A DNA stretch of 64,000 nt from Stellaceae bacterium (GCA_036510675.1 DATCDN010000138.1:109199-173198), one strand, 5' to 3'. Positions 9,261-42,646 are shown, counted from the first letter of the stretch. Program-made: numbers and translations. Notes: generated by a model not told the origin, from the letters alone.

Positions 9261-9462
9261 CAGTCGTCAGTTATCAGTCTTCAGTTATCAGTCTTCAGTT
9301 ATCAGTTATCAGTCTTCAGTTATCAGTCCTGATCGCTATCGACCAACCGCCCAAAAACTGACGACTGATAACTGACGACTGATAACTGATAACTGACGAC
9401 TGACTGATAACTGACGACTGACAACTGACAACTGATAACTGTCAACTGACAACTGACAACTC
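9261..9462. repeat. inverted heptamer-array hairpin (10 x CAGTNNT, 23-nt spacer, 15 x ANNACTG plus one 4-nt partial)
   Basis: Units were read directly. The left arm is 9261-9330 and the right arm 9354-9462. When left unit n pairs with right unit n+1, the order of unit types is mirrored and 64 of 70 positions are complementary, with one 4-nt bulge (9403-9406). Confidence 0.95.
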
Positions 9463-9478
9463 TGGAGGAGGCGAATCC

Positions 9479-10363
9479 ATGAAATCGATCGTCACCGGCG
9501 GCAATCCGGTCGCAACGGTCCTGACCTTTTTGGTCTTTGCGCTGGCGGTGCTGTCGGGCTTCATCGCCCATGGCGGCGATGCGCCGGCTTTCTATGTCAT
9601 TGCCCTTATTCTGGTGGTCATCGCGCTGTTGATACCGCGCACCCTGATGATGGCCAATCAATGGGAGCGCGCGGTGATCCTGCGCGTCGGCAAGCTCGAA
9701 GCGGTGCGCGGTCCCGGCCTGTTCATCATCATCCCGTTCGTCGATTCGGTGGCGGCGATGCTCGACCAGCGCATCCAGACCACCGAGTTCAACGCCGAAT
9801 CCGCGCTCAGCAAGGACACCGTGCCGGTCAATATCGACGCGGTGATCTTCTGGCAGGTGTTTGATTCGGAAAAGGCCGCGCTGGAGATCACCGATTTCCG
9901 CTCCGCGATCGCCCGGGTGGCGCAGACCAGCCTGCGCGAGATGGTCGGCTCGTCCTTCCTCTCGACGCTGCTGTCGGATCGCAAGCAGGCCGACGAGGTG
10001 CTGCGCGCCGAGATCGGCCGCAAGATCGCGGGCTGGGGCATCACCGTTCACACCGTCGAGATTCGCGATGTCGGCATTCCGATGGCGCTGCAGGACGCGA
10101 TGAGCCGCCAGGCGCAGGCCGAGCGCGAGCGCCAGGCCCGCGTACTGCTGGGCCAGGCGGAGGTCGAAGTCGCACAGAAATTCCTCGATGCGGCCGAGAC
10201 CTATTCCAAGAACCCGGCGGCGCTGCAATTGCGGGCGATGAACATCATCTACGAGACCACCAAGGAACGCGGCGCCACCATTCTCATTCCGACCAGCATG
10301 ATCGACGCCATGAATCCGGGCGGCATCCTGGGGCTGGCTAGGGCCGCGCAGGAGGCGAAGTAG
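9479..10363 (+). CDS. SPFH/band 7 (stomatin/prohibitin-like) membrane protein
   Basis: 294 aa with an N-terminal TM segment. The SPFH core reads WERAVILRVGKL..GPGLFIIIPFVDS..TKDTVPVNIDAVIFWQV, followed by a C-terminal coiled coil QAQAERERQARVLL. The SD GGAGG lies at 9464-9468. Confidence 0.85.
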   Translation: MKSIVTGGNPVATVLTFLVFALAVLSGFIAHGGDAPAFYVIALILVVIALLIPRTLMMANQWERAVILRVGKLEAVRGPGLFIIIPFVDSVAAMLDQRIQTTEFNAESALSKDTVPVNIDAVIFWQVFDSEKAALEITDFRSAIARVAQTSLREMVGSSFLSTLLSDRKQADEVLRAEIGRKIAGWGITVHTVEIRDVGIPMALQDAMSRQAQAERERQARVLLGQAEVEVAQKFLDAAETYSKNPAALQLRAMNIIYETTKERGATILIPTSMIDAMNPGGILGLARAAQEAK

Positions 10364-11603
10364 TCCGGGCCGACGCCGAAGTCCGGGTTTCCGGCATCGC
10401 GAGCAGCAACACCAGGAACGCGGCCGCCGCCACCGCGCCCAGACCGAGGAAGGCGGGCGTGTAGCCGAAATGATCGACGATCTCGCCGGCGGCGAGGCCG
10501 CTGATCGAGGCGCCGATCCCTTGCATGGTGGCGACGGCGCCGAGCGCGAGATTGTAGCGGCCGGTGCCGCGCATCAGATCGGCCACCACCAGCGTCGCCA
10601 GCACCGCGAAAATGCCGGCGCCGACGCCATCCAAAAGCTGAATGCCGATCAGCCAGAAGCTGTTGTCGGACAGCGTATAGAGCACCGCGCGGACCGGCAG
10701 CACAGCGAAGCCGGCGAGCAGGAAGGGCTTGCGGCCCCAGGCATTCGCCTTGAGGCCCACCAGCACCGAAATCCCGATCATCACGATTTGCGCCGCGATG
10801 ATGCAGGCCGACATCATCGCCGTCGCTTCCTTCGGGTGCGCGGCCGCCAGCTTCTGCCCGACCAGCGGCAACAGCGGCGCGTTGGCGAAATGAAACAGCA
10901 TCGCGCTGATGCCGAAGATCACCAGCGGCCGGCATTCGAACAGCACGCGCCAGCTCTTGGCGCGGTGCTTGTCGCGCGGCTGCTTGCCGCCGTCGAGGCC
11001 GCGCGCCCGGTCGAGGTCGACGGCGCTGGCCGGGATCGACAGCACCGCCATGATCGCCAGCACGGAAAAGATCGGCGCCAGCAGAAATACCGCGCGCTGG
11101 GTGAAGACATAGCCGACCCCGGCGGCGATGAGCGCGGTGGCGGCGTTGCCGGCATGATCGAACGCGGCGTTGCGCCCCATCCGCCGCGCCAGATACTGGC
11201 GCGCATAAAGGCCGAGCGTCAGGGCCGCGATCGCCGGCACGAAGACGTCGCCGACCACCGCCATGACGGCGTTGGCGACCATCACCGGCCAGAAACTGGG
11301 CACCGCGAACAGCACCCCACCCGACCCCGCGAGAATCGCCAGCGCCAGCACGATGGCGCCGCGCTTGGCCGCGGTGTGGTCGATCGCGGCGCCGATCGGC
11401 GTCTGCAGCGCGAGGCCGAGGAGGCCGCCGATCATCGTGATCAGCCCGACCCGCGACTGGGTCCAATGCAGCTCGGTGATCAGGAAGACATTGAGATAGG
11501 GGCCGAACGCGCCGCGCACGTCGGATTGCGAAAAATTCAGCGCGTCGAGCGACCAGCCGATGCGGCGGCTGGCGCGCTGGCGCGGCTTTATCGCGACAGC
11601 CAT
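10338..11603 (-). CDS. MFS transporter
   Basis: 421 aa, about 12 predicted TM helices and a central basic loop. Its 3' end overlaps the SPFH gene by 26 nt, tail to tail. Confidence 0.75.
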   Translation of the reverse strand: MAVAIKPRQRASRRIGWSLDALNFSQSDVRGAFGPYLNVFLITELHWTQSRVGLITMIGGLLGLALQTPIGAAIDHTAAKRGAIVLALAILAGSGGVLFAVPSFWPVMVANAVMAVVGDVFVPAIAALTLGLYARQYLARRMGRNAAFDHAGNAATALIAAGVGYVFTQRAVFLLAPIFSVLAIMAVLSIPASAVDLDRARGLDGGKQPRDKHRAKSWRVLFECRPLVIFGISAMLFHFANAPLLPLVGQKLAAAHPKEATAMMSACIIAAQIVMIGISVLVGLKANAWGRKPFLLAGFAVLPVRAVLYTLSDNSFWLIGIQLLDGVGAGIFAVLATLVVADLMRGTGRYNLALGAVATMQGIGASISGLAAGEIVDHFGYTPAFLGLGAVAAAAFLVLLLAMPETRTSASARTTSPPARP

Positions 11604-12796
11604 GCGACGCCCAGCGCCAGCGTCAGGATGGTGACCGGCGCGCCGACCAGGAAATAGCGCCAGAACCCTATTCTGATACCGCGCCGCTCGGCCCCCTGCA
11701 CCACGATGAGATTGGCGACCGACCCCAGGATCGTGAAATTGCCGGCCAGCGTCGAGGCCATGGCCAGCACCAGCCAGCCATGCCGCGCATCAGCAAGGGT
11801 CGCGACAAAGGGCTTGAGCACCAGGACGGCGGGCACGTTGCTCACCAGGTTCGAGAGCACTGCTGCTAACAACGCCAGAACCGGCGTTTGGTTCAGCGGC
11901 AACCGGGCGGCGCGCGCCAGAAGGTCGGGCGTCAGCACCGCCTTCTGCATCGCCGCCACCACCACGAACAGCCCGACGAACAGCAGCAGCAGCGACCAGT
12001 CGATGTCGCGATAGACCCGCGCGGGCTTGACCCGGCGCGTCAGAAACAGCGCCGATCCGCCGAGCATCGCCGCCAGCGCCGGCCGCACCCCGAGAAAGCA
12101 CGCGATGATGATCGCCAGCGTCACCAGCACCGCCTTCGCCAGCAGCACGCGGTTGAGATGCACGCGCGGCGGCGCCGCGGTGAAGCGCGCGGCGGACAGG
12201 AATTCGCGCCGCCACGCCACCGCCAGGACCAGGACGATCACCACCAGCGATGCCGCCGCCACCGGCGCGAGGTGGGCCGCGAAATCGCTATAGGCGAGAT
12301 GCGCGACGCTGCCGATCATCATGTTCTGGGGGTTGCCCATGATCGTCGCGGTACCGCCGGCGTTCGACGCCATCGCCAGCGCCAAGAGGTAGGGCACCGG
12401 GTTGCGCTTTACGGCGCGCGCCGTCTCCACCACCAGCGGCGTCAGCATCAGGCAGACCGTGTCGTTGACCAGCACCGCCGACAGAATGCCGGCGACGGCG
12501 ACGATGCCGATCAGCAGCACCAGCGGGCGATGCGCCCGTGCCACGATCCAGCCATGGCACAGCGCGAAGAAGCCCGAAAGATGCAGGTTTGATACCACGA
12601 TCATCATGCCAAGCAGCAGCGCCAGCGTGTCGATGTCGATGGCGTGATACGCCTCTTCCGGTGACAAGGCCCCCACCGCCACCATCAGCGCCGCGCCGAT
12701 CAGCGCCGCCCCGGCACGGTCGAGCCGCAGGCCGGGAATGCGCCCGATCCCGACCACCAGATAGGTCGCGGCGAAGATGATCGCGGTGACGATCAT
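11588..12796 (-). CDS. ArsB/NhaD-superfamily (citrate-transporter-like) anion permease
   Basis: 402 aa polytopic membrane protein. The N-terminus IIFAATYLVVGIGRIPGLRLDRAGAALIGAALMV is typical of the CitMHS/ArsB permease family. Confidence 0.65.
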   Translation of the reverse strand: MIVTAIIFAATYLVVGIGRIPGLRLDRAGAALIGAALMVAVGALSPEEAYHAIDIDTLALLLGMMIVVSNLHLSGFFALCHGWIVARAHRPLVLLIGIVAVAGILSAVLVNDTVCLMLTPLVVETARAVKRNPVPYLLALAMASNAGGTATIMGNPQNMMIGSVAHLAYSDFAAHLAPVAAASLVVIVLVLAVAWRREFLSAARFTAAPPRVHLNRVLLAKAVLVTLAIIIACFLGVRPALAAMLGGSALFLTRRVKPARVYRDIDWSLLLLFVGLFVVVAAMQKAVLTPDLLARAARLPLNQTPVLALLAAVLSNLVSNVPAVLVLKPFVATLADARHGWLVLAMASTLAGNFTILGSVANLIVVQGAERRGIRIGFWRYFLVGAPVTILTLALGVAWLSR

Positions 12797-12929
12797 ACTG
12801 CGCGTCCGCGCACGCGACGGTTGCCGACCATCACCCGCCGGCCGGGCGCGCGGGCGATGATCTCGGTCTCGGCCATCGGGCTATTCTAGCCATTCATGCC
12901 GACCAGCGGCATGTGCTAAAGAGCATCCG

Positions 12930-15029
12930 ATGAGCGACAAACGCCGACGGGGCCTGCGCGCCGACCCAAGCGACCGGCCGCGCCGGGGCCCGCCCGCGCC
13001 GAAATCGCGGGCCGCCGCTGCCCCGCCACCCGTCCCGCCCAAGGATCGCGGGCGCAAGCGCGCGCGCCTCGGCCAGCGCTGGTGGCATTGGGCCGCGTTC
13101 GTCGGGGTGTGGGCGGTGGTCGTGTTCATCGCCGTGCTGGCGTATTTCTGGATGACGCTGCCGCCGATCGACGATCTGACCTCGTCGGCGCGCCGGCCCA
13201 GCGTTACCCTCCTCGGCGGCGACGGCAAGGTCATCGCCACCTTCGGCGACCTGTTCGGCCAGCCGGTCAAGCTCAAGGATTTGCCGCCCTATCTGCCGGA
13301 GGCGGTGATCGCGACCGAAGATCACCGCTTCTACCATCATTTCGGCATCGACGTGATCGGTCTGGTGCGCGCCGCCGTCGCCAATCTGCGCGCCGGCCAT
13401 GTCGTGCAGGGCGGCTCGACCCTGACCCAGCAGCTCGCCAAGAACCTCTTCCTGTCGCCCGACCGCACCATGACGCGCAAAATCCAAGAGGCGCTGCTGG
13501 CGGTGTGGCTGGAGCAGCGCTTCACCAAGAACGAGATTCTCGAAATCTATCTCAACCGCGTCTATTTCGGTGCCGGCGCCTATGGCGTCGATGCCGCGGC
13601 GCATCGCTATTTCGATACCCCGGCGCGCCAGGTGACGCTGTACGAGGCCGCGACCATCGCCGGCTTGTTGAAGGCGCCGACCCGCTATAGCCCCGCGCGC
13701 GATGCCAACGCGGCGGCGATGCGCGCGCTCCACGTTCTCGATGCGATGAAGGAGGCGGGCTATATCGACGCCGGCCAGGAACGGGCGGCGCTGAACCAGG
13801 AAAAGCAGTTGGCGGTGGCCCAGCGCGTGCGGCCCAGCAACCGCTATTTCGCCGACTGGATCTATGAGCAGATCCCCGAATATGCCGGCCTGGGCAATCG
13901 CGACCTGGTCATTACCACGACGCTCGACGCCCGGATGCAGCAGGCGGCGGAGACGGCAATCGACACCACGCTGAGCCAGGACGGCGCCAAGGACAAGGTC
14001 GGCCAGGGCGCGCTGGTGGCGATGACCCCAGACGGCGCCATCCGCGCCATGGTCGGCGGCCGCGATTACAATGGCAGCCAGTTCAATCGCGCGACCCAGG
14101 CGCTGCGCCAGCCCGGCTCGGCCTTCAAATCCATCGTCTACGCGGCGGCGCTGGAGCACGGGCTGAACCCCAATCAGCATTTCAACGATCACCGCATCCG
14201 GATCGGCAAGTGGGAGCCGCGCAATTTCGAGAATGAATATCGCGGCGATGTCAGCGTCGCCGATGCCGTCGCCTTTTCCATCAACACGGTGGCGGCGCAG
14301 GTCATCCAGCGCACCGGCGTCGGCAACGTCATCGCCATGGCGCGCAAGCTGGGCATCACCACCGATCTGCAGCACGATGCCAGCCTGGCGCTCGGCACCA
14401 ACGAGGTGACGCTGATCGAGCTGACCGCCGCCTATGCCAGCTTCGCCAGCGGCGGCATGGGGGCGTGGCCCTATGGCATCGTCGACATCAAGGATAGTAG
14501 CGGCGCCGAGGTCTATCGGCGCGGCGGCTCCGGCCCCGGCCAGGTACTGCCGGCCGAGACCGCCGGCGAGATGAACCGGCTGCTGGCCGGGGTGATCGAT
14601 CGCGGCACCGGACGCGCGGCGCGGCTCGACCGGCCGGCCGCCGGCAAGACCGGCACCACCCAGGATTTCCGCGACGCGCTGTTCATCGGCTATACCGCCC
14701 AGCTCGTCGCCGGGGTGTGGTTCGGCAATGACGACAATTCACCGATGAAGCACATCACCGGCGGCACGCTGCCGGCCAAGACCTGGCACGATTTCATGAT
14801 GGCGGCGATGGCGCGCGCGCCGGTCCGGCCCCTGCCCGGCCCCCCCGCCGGCGCGCGGGCGCCGCAGCTTGCCGGCGCCAATGCGGCGCAACCACGGCTC
14901 GCCGCCGGTGCGCCGCCGGCACGCGGCGGCCTCGATGGGCTGCTCGATCGGATTTTCGGCGCGGATAAGGCCGCCCCGGCGCGCCCCGCCCCGCCGCCGA
15001 CTTACTCCCCGTCCATGCGCTATCGCTGA
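12930..15029 (+). CDS. class A penicillin-binding protein (PBP1A-type transglycosylase/transpeptidase)
   Basis: 699 aa. GT51 motifs are EDHRFYHHFGID and GGSTLTQQLAKN. Transpeptidase motifs are GSAFK (SxxK), SINT (SxN) and KTGTT. It has a basic N-terminus with a TM anchor and a Pro/Ala-rich C-terminus. Confidence 0.9.
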   Translation: MSDKRRRGLRADPSDRPRRGPPAPKSRAAAAPPPVPPKDRGRKRARLGQRWWHWAAFVGVWAVVVFIAVLAYFWMTLPPIDDLTSSARRPSVTLLGGDGKVIATFGDLFGQPVKLKDLPPYLPEAVIATEDHRFYHHFGIDVIGLVRAAVANLRAGHVVQGGSTLTQQLAKNLFLSPDRTMTRKIQEALLAVWLEQRFTKNEILEIYLNRVYFGAGAYGVDAAAHRYFDTPARQVTLYEAATIAGLLKAPTRYSPARDANAAAMRALHVLDAMKEAGYIDAGQERAALNQEKQLAVAQRVRPSNRYFADWIYEQIPEYAGLGNRDLVITTTLDARMQQAAETAIDTTLSQDGAKDKVGQGALVAMTPDGAIRAMVGGRDYNGSQFNRATQALRQPGSAFKSIVYAAALEHGLNPNQHFNDHRIRIGKWEPRNFENEYRGDVSVADAVAFSINTVAAQVIQRTGVGNVIAMARKLGITTDLQHDASLALGTNEVTLIELTAAYASFASGGMGAWPYGIVDIKDSSGAEVYRRGGSGPGQVLPAETAGEMNRLLAGVIDRGTGRAARLDRPAAGKTGTTQDFRDALFIGYTAQLVAGVWFGNDDNSPMKHITGGTLPAKTWHDFMMAAMARAPVRPLPGPPAGARAPQLAGANAAQPRLAAGAPPARGGLDGLLDRIFGADKAAPARPAPPPTYSPSMRYR

Positions 15030-15853
15030 GGGTCGCCGCCCACGGCGCCGCGCCACGCCACCAATTCGCGATAGAAGCCCGCCAGCAGGCTGGCGCTGAG
15101 CGCGACCAGCAGCATGTCGGTGATCGACTCGACGAGGCCGGAGAGGATAGTGAGGCCGAGCGGCGGCTGCGCCAGGACATCGGCGCCGGGCGCGGTCAGA
15201 ACCACGGTCGAGAGCAGGATCGCCGTCACGATCGTGGCCACGACCGTCACCGGCAGCGTCGTCACGATGCTCGCCGCGATCAGCCGCCAGGTATGGCCAC
15301 GCAACAGCCGCCACGCCGCCCCGATGCCCAAGGGCTGGCCGCACGCCGCCGCCGGAAACACCAGGCTACAGCGCACCGCCACCAGCGTCACCGCCAAGCC
15401 GGCGATGACCGCCAGCAGCGCGACCACCGCCACGGTGGCGGTGCTGTCGGCCATCCGCGCCATGGTTACGGCGGCGACCGCGACCACCGTGCCGATCAGC
15501 GCATAGACGACGCAGCCATAAATCAGAAAGCGCGCCCAGGCGCGGAAAAAGGACGCCGCTGGCTGCCGATGGGGATCGCCGACCAGGATCGATTGATGCC
15601 AGCGCACCGCGAAGGCGCTGGCGGCCAACAGCGTGACGACCGCCTGGCCGATGTCGATCGCGTCGAATTGCAGGTCCCCGGTGGCGTGGCGCCCCGGCAC
15701 CAGAAGGTTGGGCACGATCCGCGCCGCCAAGAGGGCCAACAGCATGATCCAGCCGAGATCGAGGATCTGCCCCATCCGGCCGAACACCGTGCGATAGGCA
15801 AAGCGCACTATCGTTCCCACCGCAACCTTGCGCGGCCGCTCCGATCCGTCCAT
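15020..15853 (-). CDS. hypothetical polytopic membrane protein
   Basis: About 277 aa from the ATG at 15853 (alternative 15919), with at least 6 hydrophobic helices. The tracked ORF up to 16474 runs into phoB in another frame and is trimmed. Confidence 0.5.
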   Translation of the reverse strand: MDGSERPRKVAVGTIVRFAYRTVFGRMGQILDLGWIMLLALLAARIVPNLLVPGRHATGDLQFDAIDIGQAVVTLLAASAFAVRWHQSILVGDPHRQPAASFFRAWARFLIYGCVVYALIGTVVAVAAVTMARMADSTATVAVVALLAVIAGLAVTLVAVRCSLVFPAAACGQPLGIGAAWRLLRGHTWRLIAASIVTTLPVTVVATIVTAILLSTVVLTAPGADVLAQPPLGLTILSGLVESITDMLLVALSASLLAGFYRELVAWRGAVGGDPQR

Positions 15854-15939
15854 TCCGCCGCGCCCCGCCACCTCGTCAGGCGCGGGAGCATGCCCGCGAC
15901 CCGCCGGCGCCGCAAGCATCGCGATGGGGCGGCGCGGCC

Positions 15940-17372: not shown

Positions 17373-17384
17373 TCGCTTCTCGCC

Positions 17385-20067: not shown

Positions 20068-20113
20068 GTCGGAAAAACGCCTTTCCCTGGGACGGGGAAG
20101 GAGTAGCCGGCCA

Positions 20114-27226: not shown

Positions 27227-27610
27227 ATGTCGGACATTACATGGCTGCTGATCGCGGTCATCGTCGGCCTGGTGCAAATCATGCTCGCGGCGCAGATGGC
27301 ACAAAAATATCGTAGCCTCGATTGGAACGTCGGTCCGCGCGACACCTCGATTCCGGTTGAAGGCACCGCCGGCCGCTTGGAGCGTGCCTATCGCAATTTC
27401 CTCGAGACGTTTCCCCTGTTCGCGGCGGCGCTGATCGCGGTGGTGATCCAGCACAAGTCGGGTGGCACGTCCCATTGGGGCGCGCTGCTCTACGTCATCG
27501 CGCGCATCGTCTATGTGCCGCTGTATGCCCTGGGCGTGAAGTATGTCCGCACAGCGGTCTGGGCGGTCTCGATCGTCGGCATCGTGATGCTGATCGTCGC
27601 GGCGTTCTAA
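27227..27610 (+). CDS. MAPEG family membrane protein (glutathione-transferase-like)
   Basis: 127 aa with 3-4 TM helices. RAYRNFLETFPLFAAAL and YVIARIVYVPLY are typical of bacterial MAPEG. Confidence 0.75.
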   Translation: MSDITWLLIAVIVGLVQIMLAAQMAQKYRSLDWNVGPRDTSIPVEGTAGRLERAYRNFLETFPLFAAALIAVVIQHKSGGTSHWGALLYVIARIVYVPLYALGVKYVRTAVWAVSIVGIVMLIVAAF

Positions 27611-27616: not shown

Positions 27617-27749
27617 CAGTTATCAGTTATCAGTTATCAGTTATCAGTTGTCAGTCTGATAACTGACGACTGACGACTGACGACTGACGACTGACGACTG
27701 ACGACTGATAACTGACGACTGACGACTGATAACTGACGACTGACGACTA
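27617..27749. repeat. inverted heptamer-array hairpin (6 x CAGTNNT directly abutting 13 x ANNACTG)
   Basis: The left arm is 27617-27658 (CAGTTAT x4, CAGTTGT, CAGTCTG). The right arm is 27659-27749 (ATAACTG x3, ACGACTG x9, ACGACTA). It fills almost the whole 143-bp gap between the two convergent stop codons. Confidence 0.95.
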
Positions 27750-27753: not shown

Positions 27754-28716
27754 TTAAACGTCAATCACCAGAATATCCGACAGCGCCCGCGACACGCAGG
27801 GCGTAAAGATCTTGCCGCTCTCATGTTCCTGCTTGGTCAGGATCAGGTCGCGATGGTCGGGCACGCCCGATACGATATTGGTGAGACAGGTCGCGCACAC
27901 GCCTTGTTCGCACGAGACCGGAATATCGATCCCGACGGCGCGTAGCGCCTCGACCACCGTCTTGTCCTTGGGGATGGTAATGAGCTGGCCGGTCTTCTTG
28001 ATTTCGACCAGAAACTCGGTCGCGTCTCCGGGTTTCGCCGCGACGCCGGTGAACCGCTCAAGGTGGAGATGCGCATCGTCCCACCCCAGCTTCTTCGCAA
28101 CATCGACGGCGACGTCCATCATGATGCCGGGGCCGCAAATATAGACATGCTTGCCCGGATCGGGCGCGCCGAGGAAGGCCGCGAGGTCGGGGCGCTGTTC
28201 CTCGGGACCGTCATCGAAGTGGAATTGTACCTGGGGCGCGAATTCCGCCGCCGTCACGCGTTCGTAAAACGCCGTGCGGGCGCGGCTCCGTGTGCAGTAA
28301 TGGAAGGTGAACGGCGCCGCGACGGCATGGAGGCGCTCGGCCATAGCGAGGATCGGCGTGACGCCGATGCCGCCGGCCAGCAGTACCGTCTCCTTGGCGT
28401 CGGTCGCCAGCGGAAAGAGATTGTGCGGCCCGCGAATGACGACGGTATCGCCCTCCGCCACGGTGTCGCAGAAGGCAGCGGAGCCGCCGCGCCCGGCTAG
28501 CTCGCGCTGGACGCCCAGCACATAGCGATGGCGCTCCGACGGCGCGTTGCTCAGCGAGAATTGCCTGATCTTGTCGCCGATCTTGACGTCGAGATGGGCG
28601 CCCGCCTCGAACGGCGGCAATTCCTTGCCGTCGGGATCGACCAGTTCATAGGAATAGATGCCGGTCGCTTCTTCGCGCTTCGCGGCGATCCGCGTCGAAA
28701 ACCAATCGGAACTCAT
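27754..28716 (-). CDS. PDR/VanB-family oxidoreductase (flavin reductase plus plant-type 2Fe-2S ferredoxin domain)
   Basis: 320 aa. It has the flavin-binding RQFSLSN, NAD-binding LLAGGIGVTP and the C-terminal cluster CEQGVCATC. Confidence 0.85.
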   Translation of the reverse strand: MSSDWFSTRIAAKREEATGIYSYELVDPDGKELPPFEAGAHLDVKIGDKIRQFSLSNAPSERHRYVLGVQRELAGRGGSAAFCDTVAEGDTVVIRGPHNLFPLATDAKETVLLAGGIGVTPILAMAERLHAVAAPFTFHYCTRSRARTAFYERVTAAEFAPQVQFHFDDGPEEQRPDLAAFLGAPDPGKHVYICGPGIMMDVAVDVAKKLGWDDAHLHLERFTGVAAKPGDATEFLVEIKKTGQLITIPKDKTVVEALRAVGIDIPVSCEQGVCATCLTNIVSGVPDHRDLILTKQEHESGKIFTPCVSRALSDILVIDV

Positions 28717-30068: not shown

Positions 30069-30563
30069 ATGACACAAGCGAATCCGACCTTCACCCGGCA
30101 ACTCGGCGAAAAGATGCCCGACCTGCGCCGTTACGCGCGGCGCCTGACCGGCAACACCGCCGACGCGGAAGATCTGCTGCAGGATTGCCTGTTGCGCGCG
30201 ATGGTCAACTGGCACCGCTTCCAGGAGGGGACCAATCTGCGCGCCTGGCTGTTCACCGTGATGCGCAATCTGCACATCAATTCCTATCGCCGGCCATCGC
30301 ATCACGAGGTGGCGTTGCCGCCCGACGAGCTGGCGATCGTGGCGCCGGCCCGGCCGCCCGCGCAGGAAGCCGCGGTCGAAATGACCGATTTCATGCGCGC
30401 GTTCGATCGGCTGAGCGCCGCCCGGCAGGAGACCATCATGATGGTTGGCTGGGATGGCATGAGTTATGACGACGCGGCATCGCGGTTGGGCGTGCCGACC
30501 GGCACGGTTCGCTCGCGGCTGTCGCGCGCCCGTGAAGAATTGCGCGACGCACTGAGGGGTTAA
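30069..30563 (+). CDS. ECF (sigma-70 family) RNA polymerase sigma factor
   Basis: 164 aa. Region 2 reads DAEDLLQDCLLRAMVNWHRFQEGTNLRAWLFTVMRNLHINSYRR. Region 4 reads MSYDDAASRLGVPTGTVRSRLSRAREEL. From memory it resembles EcfG/SigF-type alphaproteobacterial ECFs. Confidence 0.85.
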   Translation: MTQANPTFTRQLGEKMPDLRRYARRLTGNTADAEDLLQDCLLRAMVNWHRFQEGTNLRAWLFTVMRNLHINSYRRPSHHEVALPPDELAIVAPARPPAQEAAVEMTDFMRAFDRLSAARQETIMMVGWDGMSYDDAASRLGVPTGTVRSRLSRAREELRDALRG

Positions 30564-30567
30564 GCAA

Positions 30568-30861
30568 ATGGCCGAGAAAACCAAGACGGAAACCGACCTC
30601 GAAAAGTTGATGGCGGATGTCCAATCATTGAAGCGCGACATTGCGGCGCTGGCCGAACATTCCCGCGGCACGCTGTGGACCGGCGCCTCGGACACCGCCA
30701 ACGCGATCAGCGCCGAGGCAAGCCGCCTCTATGATGGCGTCGCCTCGCAGAGCCGGCGGTCGGCCAAGGCGGTCAGCACGCAGGTCGAGGAACAGCCGCT
30801 GCTCAGCATTCTGATCGCGTTCGGGATCGGATTCCTGGGTGGCCGCGTGCTGCCCCGCTAG
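30568..30861 (+). CDS. DUF883 (ElaB/YqjD-like) C-tail-anchored membrane protein
   Basis: 97 aa. A coiled N-terminal part is followed by the C-terminal anchor PLLSILIAFGIGFLGGRVL. It starts 4 nt after the sigma stop. Confidence 0.7.
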   Translation: MAEKTKTETDLEKLMADVQSLKRDIAALAEHSRGTLWTGASDTANAISAEASRLYDGVASQSRRSAKAVSTQVEEQPLLSILIAFGIGFLGGRVLPR

Positions 30862-31376: not shown

Positions 31377-31397
31377 TTCACTTTGTATCCGCCGACG

Positions 31398-33600: not shown

Positions 33601-33667
33601 GGTCGAAGGGGGAACGATGCGATGGGCGCGAGGCGTATCTGGCAGGCGCTGCTCTAATCGGTCGAGC

Positions 33668-34450: not shown

Positions 34451-34453
34451 CGG

Positions 34454-34666: not shown

Positions 34667-34724
34667 TCTCCGGAATTGATGCGCTCAACCCTACCGCGGT
34701 GACCGATGCGCGTCGAGACCGGCG

Positions 34725-35600: not shown

Positions 35601-36376
35601 GAGTCGCTTGCTTCCATAAGGTGGCGCGCCCGCGCGAGATCGTCGGGCGTATCGACGCTCATCGGCACCGCGTCGACCAGCGCCACGTCGATGCGCATGC
35701 CGGCATCGAGCGCGCGCAGTTGCTCCAGCCGCTCGCGCGCCTCGATCGGCGAAGGCGGCAACGCCACGAACCGCTCCAGCGCGGCGCGGCGAAACGCATA
35801 GATGCCGATATGGTGATAGTGCGGCCCATCGCCCGACGGCACCAGGTTGCGGCTGAAATAAAGCGCGCGGGCGATGCGCGCGCCGGGCGCGAAGCCCGCC
35901 GCCACTTTCACCGCCGCCGGACTGGCGCGCTCCCAATCCTCGCGCATCGGAGAGGCGAGGGTCGCGATCTCGACGCCGGGGTCGGCCAGCGGTTCAAGCG
36001 ATGCCAGAACCAGCGCGGGATCGAGCAGCGGCAGATCGCCCTGGAGGTTGACCACCACATCATGGCGCCGCGCCGGATCGAGCCGCATCACCGCCTCATG
36101 AATGCGATCGGAGCCGGAGGGGTGGTCGGGCCGGGTCAGCACCGCGTGGCCGCCCGCCTGCTCGATCGCGTCGGCGATTTCACGCTCGGCGCACGCGACC
36201 ACCACCGGTCCCGCCGCCGCCGCGACCGCCCGGCGCCAGACATGCACGATCATCGGGCGGCCCCGAATGTCCGCCAGCGGTTTCCCCGGCAGGCGGGTCG
36301 ACGCCATGCGGGCCGGGATCACGATGAGCGGCGACGAGGACGGCATGGCGATGGCCGATTTCCGATTCAGGGACAA
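35597..36376 (-). CDS. kdsB: 3-deoxy-manno-octulosonate cytidylyltransferase
   Basis: It has IVIPARMASTRLPGKPLADIRGRPMIVHV and NLQGDLPLL. An alternative ATG lies at 36346. Confidence 0.9.
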   Translation of the reverse strand: MSLNRKSAIAMPSSSPLIVIPARMASTRLPGKPLADIRGRPMIVHVWRRAVAAAAGPVVVACAEREIADAIEQAGGHAVLTRPDHPSGSDRIHEAVMRLDPARRHDVVVNLQGDLPLLDPALVLASLEPLADPGVEIATLASPMREDWERASPAAVKVAAGFAPGARIARALYFSRNLVPSGDGPHYHHIGIYAFRRAALERFVALPPSPIEARERLEQLRALDAGMRIDVALVDAVPMSVDTPDDLARARHLMEASDS

Positions 36377-36561
36377 ATTGCGGCGTTATGCCGCACGAAA
36401 TCAAGGGCTTGGCGCTGCTCGGTCCGGGGCCGGCACGATAAAGTGCGCGCCCAGCTTCAATCACATTTCGTTTGTCTTGTCAGCGAAATTTGGCGTAATT
36501 GCCGGGCTGCGGGTAGCCCCGTAGGGTCACATGGTGGGAAATCAGGCCGAGGGTTTTGTCG

Positions 36562-37407
36562 ATGTCCTTTGAGATGAACAAGATCCTGGGCGCGCTGTTG
36601 GGCGCCATGATCCTGGCGATGGCGACCGGAATCTTCGCCGGCATGCTGGTACACCCCACGGAATTGGCGAAGCCGGTCTATATGGTCGCGGGCGTCAAGA
36701 CCGCGGCGGCGACCGCCACCCCCGCGGCACCGGCCGGCCCCGCGCCGGTCGGGCCGCTGCTCGCCGGCGCCAGCGCCGCCAACGGCAAGGACATCACCCA
36801 CCGCCTGTGCGTCGCCTGTCACACCTTCGACAAGGGCGATCCGAATCGCATCGGCCCCAATCTCTTTGGCGTGTTCGATCAGCCGATCGCCGAGGGCCAT
36901 GCCGGCTACGCCTTCTCGTCGGCGCTGAAGACGCATGACAAGAGCAAGTGGACGCCCGATCTGCTGAACGCTTGGTTGACCAATCCCCAGGATTTCGCGC
37001 ACGGCACCAAGATGACCTTCGTCGGTCTACCCAAGGTGAAGGATCGGGCCGACGTCATCGCCTATCTCGACTCGCTCAGCGACAATCCCGAGCCGCTGAA
37101 GAAATTCGAGACCGCCCCGAAAGCGGCGGCGGCACCCGCCAAACCCGCGGCACCCGCGCCAGCGGCGAAGACGCCGGCGGCAGCCCCGGCCAAGACTACG
37201 CCGGCCGCACCGGCGGCGAAGGCACCCGCGCCACCGGCGACACCGGCACCGGCCGCGAAAGCCCCGACGCCGGCGGCACCGGCCGCTGCTCCAGCAGCGC
37301 CGGCCGCACCCGCCAAGGCGGCGCCGCCACCCGCGACCAATCAGACGCCGCCCGCCGGCACCCAGCCCGCGACGCAGCCGGCGCCGCCCACCACCGGCGG
37401 CAAATAG
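36562..37407 (+). CDS. membrane-anchored class I cytochrome c with a C-terminal Pro/Ala-rich tail of about 100 aa
   Basis: It has an N-terminal TM helix, the heme motif CVACH and the axial Met region GTKMTF. From about residue 180 onward the sequence is almost pure A/P/K/T. The ATG is at 36562; the tracked ORF starts at a TTG at 36556. Confidence 0.8.
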   Translation: MSFEMNKILGALLGAMILAMATGIFAGMLVHPTELAKPVYMVAGVKTAAATATPAAPAGPAPVGPLLAGASAANGKDITHRLCVACHTFDKGDPNRIGPNLFGVFDQPIAEGHAGYAFSSALKTHDKSKWTPDLLNAWLTNPQDFAHGTKMTFVGLPKVKDRADVIAYLDSLSDNPEPLKKFETAPKAAAAPAKPAAPAPAAKTPAAAPAKTTPAAPAAKAPAPPATPAPAAKAPTPAAPAAAPAAPAAPAKAAPPPATNQTPPAGTQPATQPAPPTTGGK

Positions 37408-37424
37408 CCGATGGCGGCGCGCGG

Positions 37425-38195
37425 ATGATCGGCGCCGCCGACATCGCGCTGGCTGAACGGCTCGCCGACGCGGCGGGGGAGATCGCCCGGCGCTATTTCC
37501 GCCAGCCGCTCGCCGTCGAGGACAAGGCCGATCGCTCGCCCGTGACGATGGCCGACCGCGAGGCCGAGGCCGCGATGCGTACGCTGATCGAGGCACGGTT
37601 CCCCGATGACGGCATTCTCGGCGAGGAGCATGGCACCGTCCGCGGCGATGCCAGGCGGGTCTGGGTGCTCGACCCGATCGACGGCACCAAGAGCTTCATC
37701 GCCGGCATTCCGCTGTTCGGCATCCTGATCGCGCTGGTGGAGGATGGCGCGCCGGTGCTGGGGATCATCGATCAGCCGGTGCTGCGCGAGCGGTGGGTCG
37801 GCATCGCCGGCCAGCCGACGCGCAAAAACGGCACGCCGGTTCGCACCCGCGCCTGCGCCCAACTGGCGGATGCGTCGCTCTATGCGACCTCGCCGGACAT
37901 GTTCGGCGCCGACCGGCCCGCGTTCGACCGGCTGTCGCGCGCGGTGAAGGCGACGCGCTTCGGCGCCGATTGCTATGCCTATGCCCAGGTGGCGAGCGGT
38001 TTCATCGACCTCGTCGTCGAGGCCGACCTCAAGCCCTATGATTATTGCGCACTGGTGCCGGTGATTGATGGCGCCGGCGGTGCGATAACCGATTGGCAGG
38101 GCAAGCCGCTCGGGCTCCACTCCGACGGTCGCGTGGTCGCGTCGGGAGACTCCCGCCTCGCCGCCCAGGCGCGCGCCGTGCTGAATGGGGGCTGA
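37425..38195 (+). CDS. hisN: histidinol-phosphatase, inositol monophosphatase family (HisN type)
   Basis: 256 aa from the ATG at 37425. IMPase motifs are ILGEE, WVLDPIDGTKSFI and the C-terminal WD motif ITDWQG. Confidence 0.7.
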   Translation: MIGAADIALAERLADAAGEIARRYFRQPLAVEDKADRSPVTMADREAEAAMRTLIEARFPDDGILGEEHGTVRGDARRVWVLDPIDGTKSFIAGIPLFGILIALVEDGAPVLGIIDQPVLRERWVGIAGQPTRKNGTPVRTRACAQLADASLYATSPDMFGADRPAFDRLSRAVKATRFGADCYAYAQVASGFIDLVVEADLKPYDYCALVPVIDGAGGAITDWQGKPLGLHSDGRVVASGDSRLAAQARAVLNGG

Positions 38196-38290
38196 CTGGG
38201 GCTGACCGGCGCCGCGTGACGCCGCCGGCCATTGTCCGGCCCGGCTCGGATCTCTAGAGTGCAAACGATTCGCGTCGCTTCGAGGTGTCC

Positions 38291-40105
38291 ATGCGCTTTG
38301 CCCTCTGCGTGCTGTTCGCCGGCCTGCTCTTCGCCGGCGCCGCCGTCGCCAAGCCCAGCGGCGGCCTCGCGCTCTATGGCGACCAAAAATACCAGCCCGG
38401 CTTCACCCATTTCGATTACGTCAATCCCGACGCGCCCAAGGGCGGCGCCGTCAAATTCAACGCCATCGGCACCTATGACACGTTCAACCCCTTCACCTTG
38501 AAGGGCGTGAAGGCGGAGGGGTTGGGCTATCTCTACGATACGCTGATGGTGGCGTCGGCGGACGAGCCCGATTCGCAATATGGGCTGGTGGCGCAAAGCG
38601 TCGAGGTGGCGCCCGACCGCCTGTCGGTGACCTTCGAGCTGCGGCCCGAGGCGCGCTTTCACGACGGCAGCCCGATCACCCCGGCCGATATTGTGTGGAC
38701 CTTCGACACGTTGAAGGCCAAGGGCGCGCCGCAATATCATCTCTATTACGCCGATGTGCTGAAGGCGGAACCGGTTGGCGCGCGCGGCGTCAAATTCACG
38801 TTCCGCAATGCCGACAACCGCGAATTGCCGCTGATCATCGGCGAGCTGCCGGTCTTGTCGAAAGAATATTGGCAGGGCCGCGATTTCGAGAAGACCTCGC
38901 TCGACCGGCCGCTGGGCAGCGGTCCCTACACCATCGCCGCGTTCGATCCGGGCCGGTCGATTACCTATCGCCGGGTCGCCGATTATTGGGCGAAGGACCT
39001 GCCGGTGATGAAGGGCCGATTCAATTTCGGCACCATCCGCTATGATTATTACCGCGACGCGTCGGTCGCGCTCGAGGCGTTCAAGGCCGGGCAATACGAT
39101 TTGCGCCAGGAGAACGTCGCCAAGAATTGGGCGATCGGCTACACCAGCCCCGCGCTGGCCGCCGGCCTGATCAAGAAGGCGATGATCAAGAACGAGGTGC
39201 CGCAAGGCATGCAGGCCTTCGCCTACAACACGCGCCGGCCGCTGTTCAAGGACCCGCGCGTGCGGGAGGCGCTGGACTACCTGTTCGATTTCGAGTGGGC
39301 CAACAAGAATCTGTTCTATGGCGCCTATGAACGCACCGAGAGTTATTTCTCCAACTCCGACCTGGCGGCGAGCGGCCTGCCCAGCGCGGACGAGCTGAAA
39401 ATTCTCGAGCCGCTGAAAAGCGAAGTGCCGGCCGCGGTCTTCACCAATGTCTATCACGCGCCCAAGACCGACGGCACCGGCAACATCCGCGACAGTCTCA
39501 AGAAAGCGCTGACGCTGCTGCACGGCGCCGGCTGGGACGTGAAGGGCGGCCGCCTCCTCAATGCGCAAGGCCAGCAATTCAGCTTCGAATTTCTCAATGT
39601 CGAGTCCGACTTCGAGCGCATCATCCTGCCCTTCGGCGATAATCTGCGCCGCATCGGTATCGCCATGAATCTGCGCACCGTCGATCCGGCGCAATATCAG
39701 AACCGGCTCAACGACTATGATTACGACATGACGGTGACGGTGATTCCGGAATCGTTGTCGCCGGGCAACGAACAGCGCGGCTATTGGAATTCGGCCGCGG
39801 CCGACGAGCCTGGCGGCAACAATGTCATGGGGGTGAAGAGCAAGGCGATCGACCGGCTGGTCGATGCGATCATCGCCGCGCCCGACCGGCCCAGCCTGCT
39901 GACCCGCGTCCATGCGCTCGACCGCGTGCTGCTGGAAAGCCACTATGTGATTTCCAATTGGCACATCGCGGTGTTCCGCGTCGCCTATTGGGACAAGTTC
40001 GGCCGCCCGAAGACCAGCCCGCCCTATTCGCTGGCGCTCGATAGCTGGTGGGTCGATCCGGCGCTGGACAAGGCGCTGACGGCGAACAAGGCCAAGCTGC
40101 GGTAG
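38291..40105 (+). CDS. yejA: peptide/microcin C-type ABC transporter substrate-binding protein (family 5)
   Basis: About 604 aa with a signal peptide ([12 protein letters not shown]). Its length and sequence are YejA-like, and it heads a yejA-B-E-F gene order. A GTG at 38285 is also possible. Confidence 0.85.
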
Positions 40106-40119
40106 CTGGCGGCGCCGCG

Positions 40120-41196
40120 ATGCTCGCCTACGCCATTCGCCGCATCCTGCTGATGATCCCGACCCTGTTCGCGATCATCGTCGTCAATTTCTTCATCATT
40201 CAAGCGGCACCGGGCGGGCCGGTCGATCAGATGATCGCGCAGCTCAAAGGGCGCGGCAACGTCACCGGGCGCGTCACCAGCGCCGGCGGCGAGCTCGCGC
40301 CCAATGCCTCGGCGCAAAGCCGCGCGTCGCGCGGCATCGACCCGGCACTGCTGGCGCGGCTCAACAAGCTCTATGGCTTCGACAAGCCGCCGCTCGAACG
40401 CTTCTGGATCATGATCAGGCACTATGTGACGTTCGATTTCGGCACCAGCTTCTACAGCGACCGGCGCGTGATCACCCTGCTCGTCGATAAATTGCCGGTG
40501 TCGCTGTCGCTGGGCCTGTGGACGACGCTGCTGGTCTATCTCATCTCGATCCCGCTCGGCATCGCCAAGGCGGTGCGCGATGGCTCGGCGTTCGATGTCT
40601 GGACCAGCGCCGTGGTCATCGTCGGCTATGCGATTCCGGGCTTCCTGTTCGCGATCCTGCTGGTGGTGCTGTTCGCCGGCGGCAGCTATTTCCAATGGTT
40701 CCCACTGCGCGGCCTCGTCTCCGACGATTGGTCGGAGCTCGATCTGTTTCATCAGATACTCGATTATTTCTGGCACATCGCCTTGCCGGTCACGGCGCTG
40801 GTGATCGGCGGCTTCGCCAGCCTGACCATGCTGACCAAGAATTCCTTCCTCGAGGAAATCAACAAGCAATATGTCGTGACCGCGCGCGCCAAGGGGTTGA
40901 GCGAGCGGCGCGTGCTCTATGGCCATGTCTTCCGCAATGCGATGCTGCTGGTGATCGCGGGCTTTCCCGCCGCGTTCGTCGGCATCCTCTTTACCGGCGC
41001 CCTGCTGGTCGAGGTGATCTTCTCGCTCGACGGGCTGGGCCTGCTGGGCTTTCAGGCCGCGCTGGGCCGCGACTACCCGGTCATGTTCGGCACGCTCTAC
41101 ATCTATACGCTGGTCGGGCTGGTGATGAAGCTGATCAGCGATCTGACCTACATGCTGGTCGATCCGCGCATCGATTTCGCGACCCGCAACACATGA
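40120..41196 (+). CDS. yejB: ABC transporter permease YejB
   Basis: 358 aa. [27 protein letters not shown] is the DppB/OppB-type N-terminus. Confidence 0.85.
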
Positions 41197-42224
41197 TGGG
41201 GCGGCCGCTTACGCCGCTGATGCGGCGGCGCCTCGCCAATTTCCGCGCCAACAGCCGCGGCTATTGGTCGATGTGGTTTTTCCTGGTGCTGTTCGTCGCC
41301 AGCCTGTTCGCCGAATTCATCGCCAACGACCGGCCGCTGATCGTGTCCTATGACGGGCATTTCATGTTCCCGATCATTCGCGATTACACCGAGACCGAGC
41401 TGGGCGGCGACCTGCCGATCGACGCCGATTTTCGCGATCCCGAAGTGGCGGCGCGCATCGAGGCGAAGGGCTGGATGCTGTGGCCGCTGATCCCGTTCGA
41501 TTATCGCGCCATCAATTTCCACCTGCCTTCGCCCGCGCCGTCGCCGCCCAGCGCCGTCAACTGGCTGGGGACCGACGATCAGGGCCGCGATGTGTTCGCG
41601 CGCCTCATCTATGGCTTCCGCATTTCGGTGCTGTTCGGCCTGGTGCTGACGGTGCTGAGCTCGATCATCGGAGTCGCGGCCGGCGCAATCCAGGGCTATT
41701 ACGGCGGCCTGACCGACCTCGCGGCACAGCGGTTCCTCGAAATCTGGTCGGGCCTGCCGGTGCTCTATCTGCTGATCATCCTCTCCAGCATCATCCAGCC
41801 AAATTTCTGGTGGCTCCTGGGCATTATGCTGCTGTTCTCGTGGATGTCGCTGGTCGATCTGGTGCGCGCCGAATTTCTGCGCGCGCGCAATTTCGACTAT
41901 GTCCGCGCCGCCAAGGCGCTCGGCGTGTCGAACCCGGTGATCATCTGGCGCCATGTTTTGCCCAACGCGATGGTGGCGACGCTGACCTTCCTGCCGTTCA
42001 TCCTCAATGGCTCGATCACGACGCTGACCTCGCTCGATTTCCTTGGCTTCGGCTTGCCGCCCGGCTCGCCGTCGCTGGGCGAATTGCTGTCCGAGGGCAA
42101 GAGCAACCTGCAAGCGCCATGGCTGGGCCTGACCGCGTTCTTCACGCTCGGCCTGATGCTGAGCCTCTTGATCTTCATCGGCGAAGCGGTGCGCGACGCC
42201 TTCGATCCGCGGAAGATGGGATAG
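41193..42224 (+). CDS. yejE: ABC transporter permease YejE
   Basis: 343 aa. The start overlaps the yejB stop (ATGA). It is a DppC/OppC-type permease with [17 protein letters not shown]. Confidence 0.85.
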
Positions 42225-42233
42225 GGTAATTGT

Positions 42234-42261
42234 CAGTCTTCAGTTGTCAGTTTTCAGTCAG
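42234..42261. repeat. left heptamer arm of the four-helix-bundle cassette (CAGTCTT CAGTTGT CAGTTTT CAGTCAG)
   Basis: Read directly. The last unit overlaps the AGGAG SD (42260-42264) of the downstream ORF. Confidence 0.9.
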
Positions 42262-42266
42262 GAGAA

Positions 42267-42626
42267 ATGCAGAATTTCCGCGACCTCAAGGTTTGGAGCA
42301 AGGCTCATGCGGTTGTGATTGCCGTGTACGCCGCGACCGAGCCGTTTCCAGCGGCGGAGCGTTTTGGCCTCACAAGCCAGATGCGTCGGGCCGCTTCCTC
42401 GATTCCGGCGAATATCGCCGAGGGATGCGGCCGTTCGAGCAATGCCGATTTGGCGCGCTTTCTCCATATCGCATTGGGATCGGCAAGCGAGCTCGACTAC
42501 TTTTTACTGCTCGCCCGCGATCTGAAATTCTTAAAGCCTCCAATTCACGACGATCTCCGCGCCAATGTTCAAGAGGTCAAACGAATGCTCGGCGGCCTGA
42601 TCGGTCGCGTCAGAACTGATGACTGA
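42267..42626 (+). CDS. four-helix-bundle protein (23S rRNA intervening-sequence protein / DGR Avd fold family)
   Basis: 119 aa. FRDLKVWSKAH, ERFGLTSQMRRAASSIPANIAEGCGR and FLHIALGSASELDYFLLLA match the TIGR02436/PF05635 pattern as I remember it. Confidence 0.85.
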   Translation: MQNFRDLKVWSKAHAVVIAVYAATEPFPAAERFGLTSQMRRAASSIPANIAEGCGRSSNADLARFLHIALGSASELDYFLLLARDLKFLKPPIHDDLRANVQEVKRMLGGLIGRVRTDD

Positions 42627-42646
42627 AAACTGATGACTGAAAACTT
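42612..42646. repeat. right heptamer arm of the cassette (AGAACTG ATGACTG AAAACTG ATGACTG AAAACTT)
   Basis: Read directly. It contains the ORF stop (42624-42626) and the yejF ATG (42633-42635). It includes a perfect 14-nt tandem duplication (42618-42631 = 42632-42645). Confidence 0.9.

Follow-up and report, generated by a model that had tools for sequence, protein, structure and literature searches.

Why are three gaps between genes in a single stretch of bacterial DNA filled with tandem copies of the same seven-nucleotide unit, each time as a pair of inverted arrays, and why does one of these pairs enclose a gene? The question is posed by a 64,000-nt window (the whole stretch analysed, DATCDN010000138.1:109199-173198) of a metagenome-assembled genome (GCA_036510675.1) from a soil bacterium of the Stellaceae (Alphaproteobacteria). 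The three loci, which lie between positions 9,261 and 42,646, are one kind of intergenic stem-loop of the TAACTGA repeat family, with tandem TCAGTNN units in one arm and NNACTGA units in the other. Since the repeat unit was known beforehand, the element is not new in kind. What is new is its hairpin form with an absolute polarity, its presence in Alphaproteobacteria and in phage operons and, above all, what sequence comparison presents as the near-universal embedding of one clade of PF05635 genes, encoding four-helix-bundle proteins, in inverted heptamer arrays.

An initial annotation of the window had counted about 53 units at three loci, and this count stands. The pattern CAGTNNTCAGTNNT matches 39 times in the 64-kb window, against 0.00 matches expected from shuffles, and every match falls within the three intergenic loci; no further CAGT-N3-CAGT pair occurs outside them in the whole 64 kb. 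Tandem Repeats Finder (TRF) calls period-7 arrays at the same three places, and direct reading agrees, for a total of 53 units over the three loci. Counted from the first base of the window, the features are these:

9261-9330, plus strand: locus 1, 5' arm, 10 CAGTNNT units (TAT five times, CTT three times, CGT, CCT)
9331-9353, no strand: locus 1, loop, a non-repeat spacer without gene remnant
9354-9461, plus strand: locus 1, 3' arm, 15 NNNACTG units, with TGA in all three frames
27617-27655, plus strand: locus 2, 5' arm, 6 CAGT cores (TAT four times, TGT)
27656-27748, plus strand: locus 2, 3' arm, 12 ACTG cores (CGT-type nine times, TAT-type three times) and a partial ACGACT
42230-42261, plus strand: locus 3, 5' arm, 4 CAGT cores (cores spanning 42234-42258)
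42267-42626, plus strand: four-helix-bundle protein gene, 119 aa, PF05635 / TIGR02436 (S23p, "23S rRNA IVS protein", IVS standing for intervening sequence)
42612-42646, plus strand: locus 3, 3' arm, 4 ACTG cores and a degenerate AAAACTT

The 3' arm of locus 1 contains a truncated 4-nt unit at 9400-9403, locus 2 has no loop (its dyad centre reads TCAG-T-CTGA), and the 3' arm units of locus 3 run AGAACTG, ATGACTG, AAAACTG, ATGACTG and AAAACTT. These unit counts confirm that the variants are locus-specific, as first annotated. The accompanying claim that the 4-nt core CAGT/ACTG alone is invariant was right about a conserved core and wrong about its extent. The T preceding CAGT (position 7 of CAGTNNT) is invariant in 39 of 39 exact two-unit matches to CAGTNNTCAGTNNT, which extends the conserved core to the 5 nt TCAGT/ACTGA and leaves two positions free to vary; exceptions are degenerate units at array edges, for example CAGTCAG at locus 3. 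The arrays have a GC content of 35-45%, compared with 66% for the window. Arrays in contigs from four or five independent samples are identical at all three loci, and because these independent assemblies agree the arrays are not assembly artefacts. The same contigs show no unit-number polymorphism within the sampled population, a variation for which the initial annotation had proposed to look.

That annotation had offered the cyanobacterial STRR heptamers (CCCCAGT, TTGGTCA, CAACAGT) as an analogue. Common to STRR and the window are only the 7-nt period and, in two STRR units, the letters CAGT, and the host here belongs to the Stellaceae. The exact unit was published by MacGregor in 2015 (Front Microbiol 6:1397, PMC4679880) as "TAACTGA direct repeats", with 169 sets in a Maribeggiatoa genome and further occurrences in Beggiatoaceae, Cyanobacteria, a few Bacteroidetes and Thiocystis. 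Most of these repeats are intergenic and lie just upstream of start codons; their forward orientation sets stops in three frames and the reverse translates as LSVISYQ, 7-nt indels distinguish Cyanothece strains at the repeats, and assemblies break inside them (PMC4679880). Fifteen heptamers in the window are exactly of the published type (7 TAACTGA and 8 TCAGTTA), the remainder being 1-2-nt variants, among them CGACTGA, CAACTGA, AGACTGA and similar units. The window arrays thus share with the TAACTGA repeats their heptamer, intergenic placement and three-frame stops. Placement shortly upstream of a start codon is also shared by locus 1 (17 nt) and locus 3 (which contains an ATG), locus 2 lying between convergent genes. 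Unlike the published repeats, which are direct, with one inverted pair only among 170 sets in the Maribeggiatoa genome (PMC4679880, which does not mention S23p), all three window loci are inverted pairs; the Stellaceae host, the strict-polarity hairpins and the enclosure of a PF05635 gene by one of them are further differences.

Is the enclosed gene an accident of locus 3? Its product matches PF05635 with E = 5.7e-38 (129.8 bits, cut-off 33.8) and TIGR02436 with E = 2.2e-36, and the best-matching solved structure is that of XCC0516 from Xanthomonas campestris (PDB 2GSC, E = 2.8e-20). The last four codons of the gene and its TGA stop (42624-42626) are encoded by units of the 3' arm. A hidden Markov model (HMM) scan of all open reading frames (ORFs) in the window gives one hit, so that the gene is found only at locus 3; a second candidate at 30556-30858, raised by a weak HMM hit, was rejected, as Pfam does not assign it to PF05635. 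Proteins of this family are common, crystal structures exist, and Avd of diversity-generating retroelements owes its fold to the family; yet we know of no role for these proteins outside such retroelements.

A set of 80 loci encoding proteins 52-65% identical to the locus 3 protein, drawn from Acidobacteriota, Chloroflexota, Planctomycetota, Nitrospirota, Verrucomicrobiota, Cyanobacteriota, Proteobacteria and others (more than ten phyla), gives a clear answer. Period-7 arrays occur at 1.26 per kb within 150 nt of the gene and at 0.055 per kb elsewhere in the loci, a 23-fold difference, and the enrichment is specific to this period, the density of periods 5, 6 and 8-11 near the gene being about zero. 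An array stands on at least one side of the gene in 60 of the 71 loci with complete flanks, and on both sides in 40; of the 79 loci whose flanks were long enough for the test, 58 have a significant inverted repeat linking the two flanks. The core differs from locus to locus (CAGC 39, TAGC 16, CAGT 14, AAGC 5, plus others), and the two arms of a locus covary: in the 40 two-sided cassettes (gene and arms together), when the 5' consensus unit is compared with the reverse-complemented 3' unit, the two disagree at 1.27 of 7 positions within a locus and at 2.63 between loci, and none of 5000 shuffles gave a value as low as the former. Viral copies of the gene are likewise flanked by heptamer arrays.

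The converse does not hold. Among 160 further array loci fetched by DNA pattern (80 from metagenomes, each with at least four CAGTNNT units, and 80 viral, the latter covering 620 kb), a PF05635 gene is adjacent in 1 and present anywhere on the contig in 3. The single adjacent case is a metagenome locus (L106) with the gene between its arms, and two more metagenome loci have one elsewhere on the contig; the viral loci have none (0 of 80). The association of arrays with four-helix-bundle genes that was first suggested for the window, where it concerns locus 3 alone, is therefore strong from gene to array and weak from array to gene. Gene-less hairpins were considered as decayed cassettes, and no PF05635 remnant was found in their spacers, even with permissive HMM settings. 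Arrays may also enclose other cargo. At L121 (1692-2168), a CAGT arm of 6 units and an ACTG arm of 14 units surround a 337-nt spacer with an ORF beginning MKLTAVFEPAEEGGYTCFVEE, a HicB-type antitoxin candidate recognised by eye only.

What do the two arms have in common across loci? In the window the TCAGTNN arm is always 5' and the NNACTGA arm always 3', and among the 160 further loci hairpin-type pairs are CAGT...ACTG by 90 to 0, the opposite dyad (ACTG...CAGT) never being seen. The single polarity noted at the outset is thus real; its supposed independence of the orientation of flanking genes is automatic, because CAGT...ACTG is unchanged by reverse complementing. The 40 two-sided cassettes follow the same rule, with TCAG-type units upstream and CTGA-type units downstream in 24 and the reverse in 2, the remaining 14 being same-sense pairs or too ambiguous to call. 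As a result of this polarity the three-frame stop codons are carried by the 3' arm: stops in all three frames are found in the 3' arms of 40 of 51 cassettes and in the 5' arms of 16 of 49, and the stop codon of the enclosed ORF itself lies inside the array in 32 of 71.

Arm length follows no such rule. The initial annotation had the right arm longer at each of the three loci, which is so at loci 1 and 2 and at locus 3 rests on one degenerate unit, and it had raised this to a property of the family. Among 71 cassettes the longer arm is downstream in 29 and upstream in 28 (Wilcoxon p = 0.95), and the three-for-three result in the window is best taken as chance.

The paired arms have a marked potential to fold. 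Predicted folding energies are -105 kcal/mol for locus 1 (z = -12.9) and -62 kcal/mol for locus 2 (z = -10.1), and the arms of locus 3 pair across the enclosed gene over about 26 bp. The hairpins also fit closely between coding sequences, starting 3-6 nt past a stop codon and either ending about 17 nt ahead of a start codon or overlapping the start. Locus 1 is flanked by two plus-strand genes, one for a hybrid histidine kinase (6167-9256) and one for a slipin/SPFH protein, and its 5' arm begins 3 nt past the kinase stop codon. The Shine-Dalgarno sequence GGAGGAGG of the SPFH gene directly follows the 3' arm, and its ATG is at 9479, 17 nt past the end of that arm. Locus 2 is flanked by convergent genes, a MAPEG gene (27227-27610) and a ferredoxin reductase gene (27754-28716, minus strand), and its 5' arm begins 6 nt past the MAPEG stop codon. 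Locus 3 sits in an ABC transporter operon (yejABEF-like) between a yejE-like permease gene, which ends at 42224, and a yejF-like ATPase gene; its 5' arm begins 5 nt past the yejE-like stop and continues into the enclosed gene's Shine-Dalgarno sequence, GGAG. On the 3' side, the yejF-like gene (42633-44243) takes its ATG, and with it its first four codons (MTEN), from the arm. This ATG (42633) is 7 bases past the stop of the enclosed gene, and the yejF-like gene has no Shine-Dalgarno sequence; at the two orthologous loci of other Stellaceae yejF starts 28-41 nt past the stop codon, outside the array.

Some phage structural operons repeat this arrangement many times over. In five IMG/VR contigs (L263, L270, L289, L299 and L306) a CAGT-to-ACTG hairpin occupies nearly every gap between co-directional genes, starting 2-13 nt past the stop and ending about 16-21 nt ahead of the next start codon. 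Genes in these hairpin-rich modules include those for virion morphogenesis and head-tail connector proteins.

To which known systems, then, do the loci belong? The arrays are distinct from CRISPR, being head-to-tail 7-nt units without spacers and with inverted arms, where CRISPR repeats are direct and 25-40 nt long. Nor are they intrinsic terminators, since their GC content is low and direct reading finds no T run after the 3' arms; the bases that follow the gene-less hairpins, CTCTGGAGG at locus 1 and ACCCGTTAAACG at locus 2, hold no U-tract. REP/BIME, Correia/nemis and ERIC elements are intergenic palindromic repeats whose hairpins influence the stability of mRNA or serve as substrates of RNase III. 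The REP/BIME-RAYT pairing resembles the present one in its abundant intergenic palindromic repeats and co-transcription within operons, and a RAYT gene can be flanked by inverted copies. REP/BIME elements are, however, fixed-length imperfect palindromes of 20-40 nt whose head is conserved, whereas the window has variable-number heptamer arms with a four-helix-bundle cargo, and RAYT is a HUH transposase, whereas PF05635 has to our knowledge no catalytic activity. The unit type and the inverted arms thus uphold the separation from both REP/BIME and CRISPR on which the initial annotation had insisted.

Two published systems come closer. In Coxiella, the 23S rRNA intervening sequence encodes S23p and has 2-3 tandem heptamers in its terminal stem, beside the start of the ORF; their number varies between strains, and RNase III cuts at the first repeat in vitro (Warrier et al. 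2016, PMC4990558). Like the 23S intervening sequences of Leptospira and Coxiella, locus 3 has a PF05635 ORF bracketed by stem-forming inverted repeats. Unlike them, it lies between ABC permease and ATPase genes rather than in helix 25 or 45 of a 23S rRNA gene (an Rfam search of the window returned no rRNA or other match), its arms are wholly heptamer arrays, and gene-less copies are found elsewhere in the genome. The second system is that of the GGGAATC / GGGGAYT heptamers of Xanthomonas and Nostoc described by Rehm et al. (2015, PMC4692102). In Xanthomonas these include 70-75 convergent inverted pairs, always of one polarity, conserved in position and variable in length. This is the closest published inverted-pair architecture of intergenic tandem heptamers, though GGGAATC is unlike TCAGTNN in being G-rich, quadruplex-capable and devoid of stop codons.

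From these observations we lean, tentatively and for somewhat less than the better part of the probability, toward a reading in which the arrays are slippage-built intercistronic stem-loops acting on the transcript, locus 3 being a non-ribosomal cassette akin to the 23S intervening sequences. Comparison shows that the arrays are built and resized in place in 7-nt steps, with their arms kept complementary at the 5-nt core; the element would span exactly the distance from a stop codon to the ribosome-binding site that follows. The transcript would fold into a long imperfect double-stranded stem, and the 3' arm would set three-frame stop codons just ahead of the next start and double as the leader of the gene that follows. 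Such a stem may be cut by RNase III, which is specific for double strands, or may shield RNA ends; either would set the stability and translational coupling of the flanking cistrons, as intercistronic hairpins do in other operons. The loop of locus 3 carries its S23p gene in the layout of an RNase III-excised 23S intervening sequence, here inside a yejABEF-like operon, and loci 1 and 2 are gene-less copies of the same element. We infer action on RNA and cleavage by RNase III from the capacity of the arms to fold, from their covariation, from how exactly the hairpins fit between stop and start, from the arrangement in phages and from the Coxiella precedent.

Several observations weigh against such a role. 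Strand tests, which rest on the asymmetry between G-U and A-C pairs, give little preference for the transcript: among 77 cassettes the sense strand gives the better arm fold in 46 and the other strand in 31, only a slight advantage (p = 0.025), phage operons of known direction show no such bias (11 vs 15), and at locus 1 the minus strand has the stronger predicted fold (-120 vs -105 kcal/mol). Only the core sustains the pairing: complementarity of the variable positions is 0.52 in register and 0.56 with shuffled unit order. About 32 of the 80 metagenome loci are single arms without a partner and about half are hairpins; taken with the published direct repeats, the single arms imply that a hairpin is not required for the unit's own role. 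A simple stem model leaves the strict polarity unexplained, and no Rfam family matches the elements. The idea that the arms are mirror copies of one another was dropped on the same register test, because the variable positions are no more complementary than under shuffled order; the mirror order suggested by locus 1 does not hold in general.

How have the arrays changed at fixed sites? Orthologues of the locus 1 site, ranked here with the identity of the adjacent SPFH protein to that of the window, hold the following:

Window: SPFH identity 100%, 25 units
L352: SPFH identity 84%, about 9 degenerate units
L351: SPFH identity 86%, 2 units
L353: SPFH identity 82%, an empty 16-nt spacer
L093: SPFH identity 100%, an unrelated GC-rich palindromic element

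Because the orthologous site holds 0, 2, about 9 or 25 units, the arrays have grown in place, which bears out the in-situ amplification proposed in the initial annotation; by this comparison they expand and contract where they stand, and can also be replaced. The replacement is seen in a co-occurring strain, where L093 1-216 (ENA ERZ27294387, k141_413836), orthologous to window positions 9240-9481 and with the same kinase gene end, has several short palindromes (CCCTCTCCGCCCC...GGGGCGGAGAGG and others) instead of the locus 1 hairpin. No element of this GC-rich type occurs in the window.

In two other Stellaceae lineages, too, the locus 3 cassette occupies the yejE|yejF junction, and among the three lineages its four-helix-bundle protein is 68-75% identical, compared with 78-82% for yejE and 74-78% for yejF. 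The cassette is as diverged as its syntenic neighbours and is therefore old, vertically inherited and constrained. One of the other two lineages keeps CAGT/ACTG arms and the other has AAGC/GCTT on both arms, a concerted change. Although the locus has been inherited vertically within the Stellaceae, the GC content of the gene (57% vs 66% for the window) and its homologues in very distant phyla point to horizontal spread of the PF05635 gene itself. Among the homologues of 52-65% identity is one on a contig labelled Bathyarchaeia (L027).

The tie between gene and array admits another explanation, that the PF05635 protein is a trans-acting partner of the repeats, predicted to bind several tandem heptamers in RNA or single-stranded DNA (ssDNA). 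It would form a basic homopentameric ring with one core per subunit, much as TRAP binds spaced triplets, and would autoregulate its own gene from the sites on either side, gene-less arrays being its regulon or propagated copies in the manner of REP/RAYT. Period-7 arrays at the ends of the gene in 60 of 71 homologue loci from more than ten phyla, viral copies included, are what this explanation would expect, and the gene-flanking and gene-less arrays of the window share one core; near and distant arrays of one locus resemble each other slightly more than randomly paired arrays do (n = 10, p about 0.05). With a pI of 9.35 the protein is basic, and it is distantly related to Avd, the nucleic-acid-binding protein of diversity-generating retroelements, with which it shares the four-helix-bundle superfamily fold. 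The relationship is remote, since the matches (bAvd, E = 7.5e-4; NF033474, 29.9 bits against a cut-off of 80) are far below the Avd cut-offs of 40 and 80 bits, and no reverse transcriptase or template/variable repeat is found beside the gene, its neighbours being the yejE-like and yejF-like genes.

Published work lends this explanation some further support. MacGregor argued that the TAACTGA repeats are sites bound by a post-transcriptional regulator, which was left unnamed (PMC4679880). In X. campestris, a 4-unit array of that organism's own dispersed heptamer, GGGAATC, overlaps the annotated start codon of XCC0516, the S23p gene of structure 2GSC, next to accB (PMC4692102 supplementary table), a proximity that drew no comment from its authors. 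Against the partner explanation, arrays vastly outnumber genes (1 of 160 adjacent, 3 of 160 on the contig), and no PF05635 gene was found in the stretches examined of the five hairpin-filled phage contigs. Moreover, no residue outside the array-encoded C-terminus clearly tracks core type (CAGC, CAGT or TAGC): the top columns are that C-terminus, and the others could reflect phylogeny. The core has also changed at an orthologous Stellaceae site while the protein stayed about 73% identical. We consider a trans-acting partner unlikely. In its broadest form it would make PF05635/S23p proteins the missing partners of bacterial tandem heptamers, pentameric rings reading TCAGY-type cores in RNA or ssDNA, with genes and dispersed arrays forming a horizontally spreading system of post-transcriptional control, or a self-propagating one, that extends from rRNA intervening sequences to phage operons; the same low credence attaches to that larger proposal.

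Should the arrays instead be seen as DNA elements? Inverted arrays could be sites of recombination or insertion, with incidental hairpin potential, either as the multi-site ends of something like a transposon or MITE or as a landing pad at which small gene cassettes are swapped by homologous recombination. Repeats that are direct within an arm and inverted between arms do resemble multi-site transposon ends. The similarity of proteins across distant phyla and phages (52-65% identity), the low GC content of the gene, the replacement of the locus 1 hairpin in L093 despite an identical SPFH protein, the HicB-like candidate between CAGT/ACTG arms in L121 and the lack of preference for the RNA sense strand in the fold tests all sit comfortably with such a role. 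Yet no transposase, integrase or target-site duplication was seen at any locus, and the gradual change in unit number at one orthologous site is what one would expect of local growth, not of a fixed element being inserted. The yejE|yejF cassette, syntenic and as diverged as its neighbours, has long been immobile, and hairpin spacers hold no gene remnants. A DNA-level role accordingly seems to us quite improbable.

Nor need the arrays do anything at all. They could be functionless, slippage-prone repeats whose palindromes are kept by template switching (quasipalindrome correction), with PF05635 as a selfish passenger. Heptamers are an over-represented class of long simple-sequence repeats in bacteria (a statement cited in PMC4692102), lineages drift apart in unit number, pairing places no constraint on the variable positions, and the genes downstream of TAACTGA repeats have no common function (PMC4679880). 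Mere slippage does not readily account for the strict polarity (90 to 0 among hairpins, 24 vs 2 among the 40 two-sided cassettes), for the tight fit of arrays from stop to start in phage operons, or for array positions conserved between Xanthomonas species (90% vs 70% for controls, PMC4692102). Samples of one population also carry identical arrays, and the gene inside the cassette is conserved. We regard absence of function as quite doubtful.

Phase variation, finally, would have the arrays serve as contingency loci in which gain or loss of units switches expression of the downstream gene. The arrays do lie just upstream of start codons, and heptamer repeats drive phase variation in the Haemophilus hmw genes (PMC8262952, PMC12721329). 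Unit numbers are nevertheless identical in four or five samples at all three loci, a 7-nt change upstream of a start codon leaves the reading frame unshifted, and the neighbours are of housekeeping type (transporter, slipin, MAPEG). The proposal is very improbable.

The hairpin form with its polarity, its presence in Alphaproteobacteria and phage operons and the embedding of the PF05635 clade in arrays together join three separate strands of literature and make an old question testable. Tandem heptamers such as STRR, GGGAATC and TAACTGA are the most over-represented long simple repeats in many bacteria, and have been described repeatedly without a function or a partner. No paper stating a general association between PF05635/S23p and heptamers was found in the open-access literature, although subscription journals or family descriptions may hold one. 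The link consists of the nearly constant embedding of the gene in inverted arrays, the covarying arms and the strict polarity. If it is causal, the puzzles of the heptamers and of PF05635 would both be open to simple experiments, X. campestris being tractable, and the ribosomal intervening sequences would be tied to a general class of intercistronic RNA elements that phages also use. There is a practical side as well: arrays create false ORFs, shift the apparent starts and ends of genes and break metagenome assemblies. ORFs translated from the repeats (VISYQLS and similar) are present in the ORF list of the window, and they are artefacts, as the initial annotation had recognised. Cassettes are probably under-counted in metagenome bins, because the repeats break short-read assemblies.

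Some minor observations concern individual loci. Contigs with close PF05635 homologues are mostly about 1-2 kb long, and three that carry the window's own loci (L090, L096 and L100) end inside arrays. In the Maribeggiatoa genome BOGUAY_0693 has 29 close matches (PMC4679880), though its identity is not recoverable from the supplement. In X. campestris (XCC0516/XCC0517) the S23p gene, like that at locus 3 of the window, appears to interrupt a conserved operon. Unusual layouts surround the PF05635 gene at L026 (2332-3065), L036 (2339-2500), L044 (3115-3429) and L012 (398-730): at some the gene is surrounded by several consecutive hairpins, at some a full hairpin upstream is followed by the gene and then an extra 3'-type arm, and one has two copies of the gene within 2 kb. 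At L150 (407-805) the homologue is split over two adjacent reading frames, a likely frameshift or pseudogene, and has directly oriented GACTGAA/GGCTGAA units on both sides, after which comes an inverted set.

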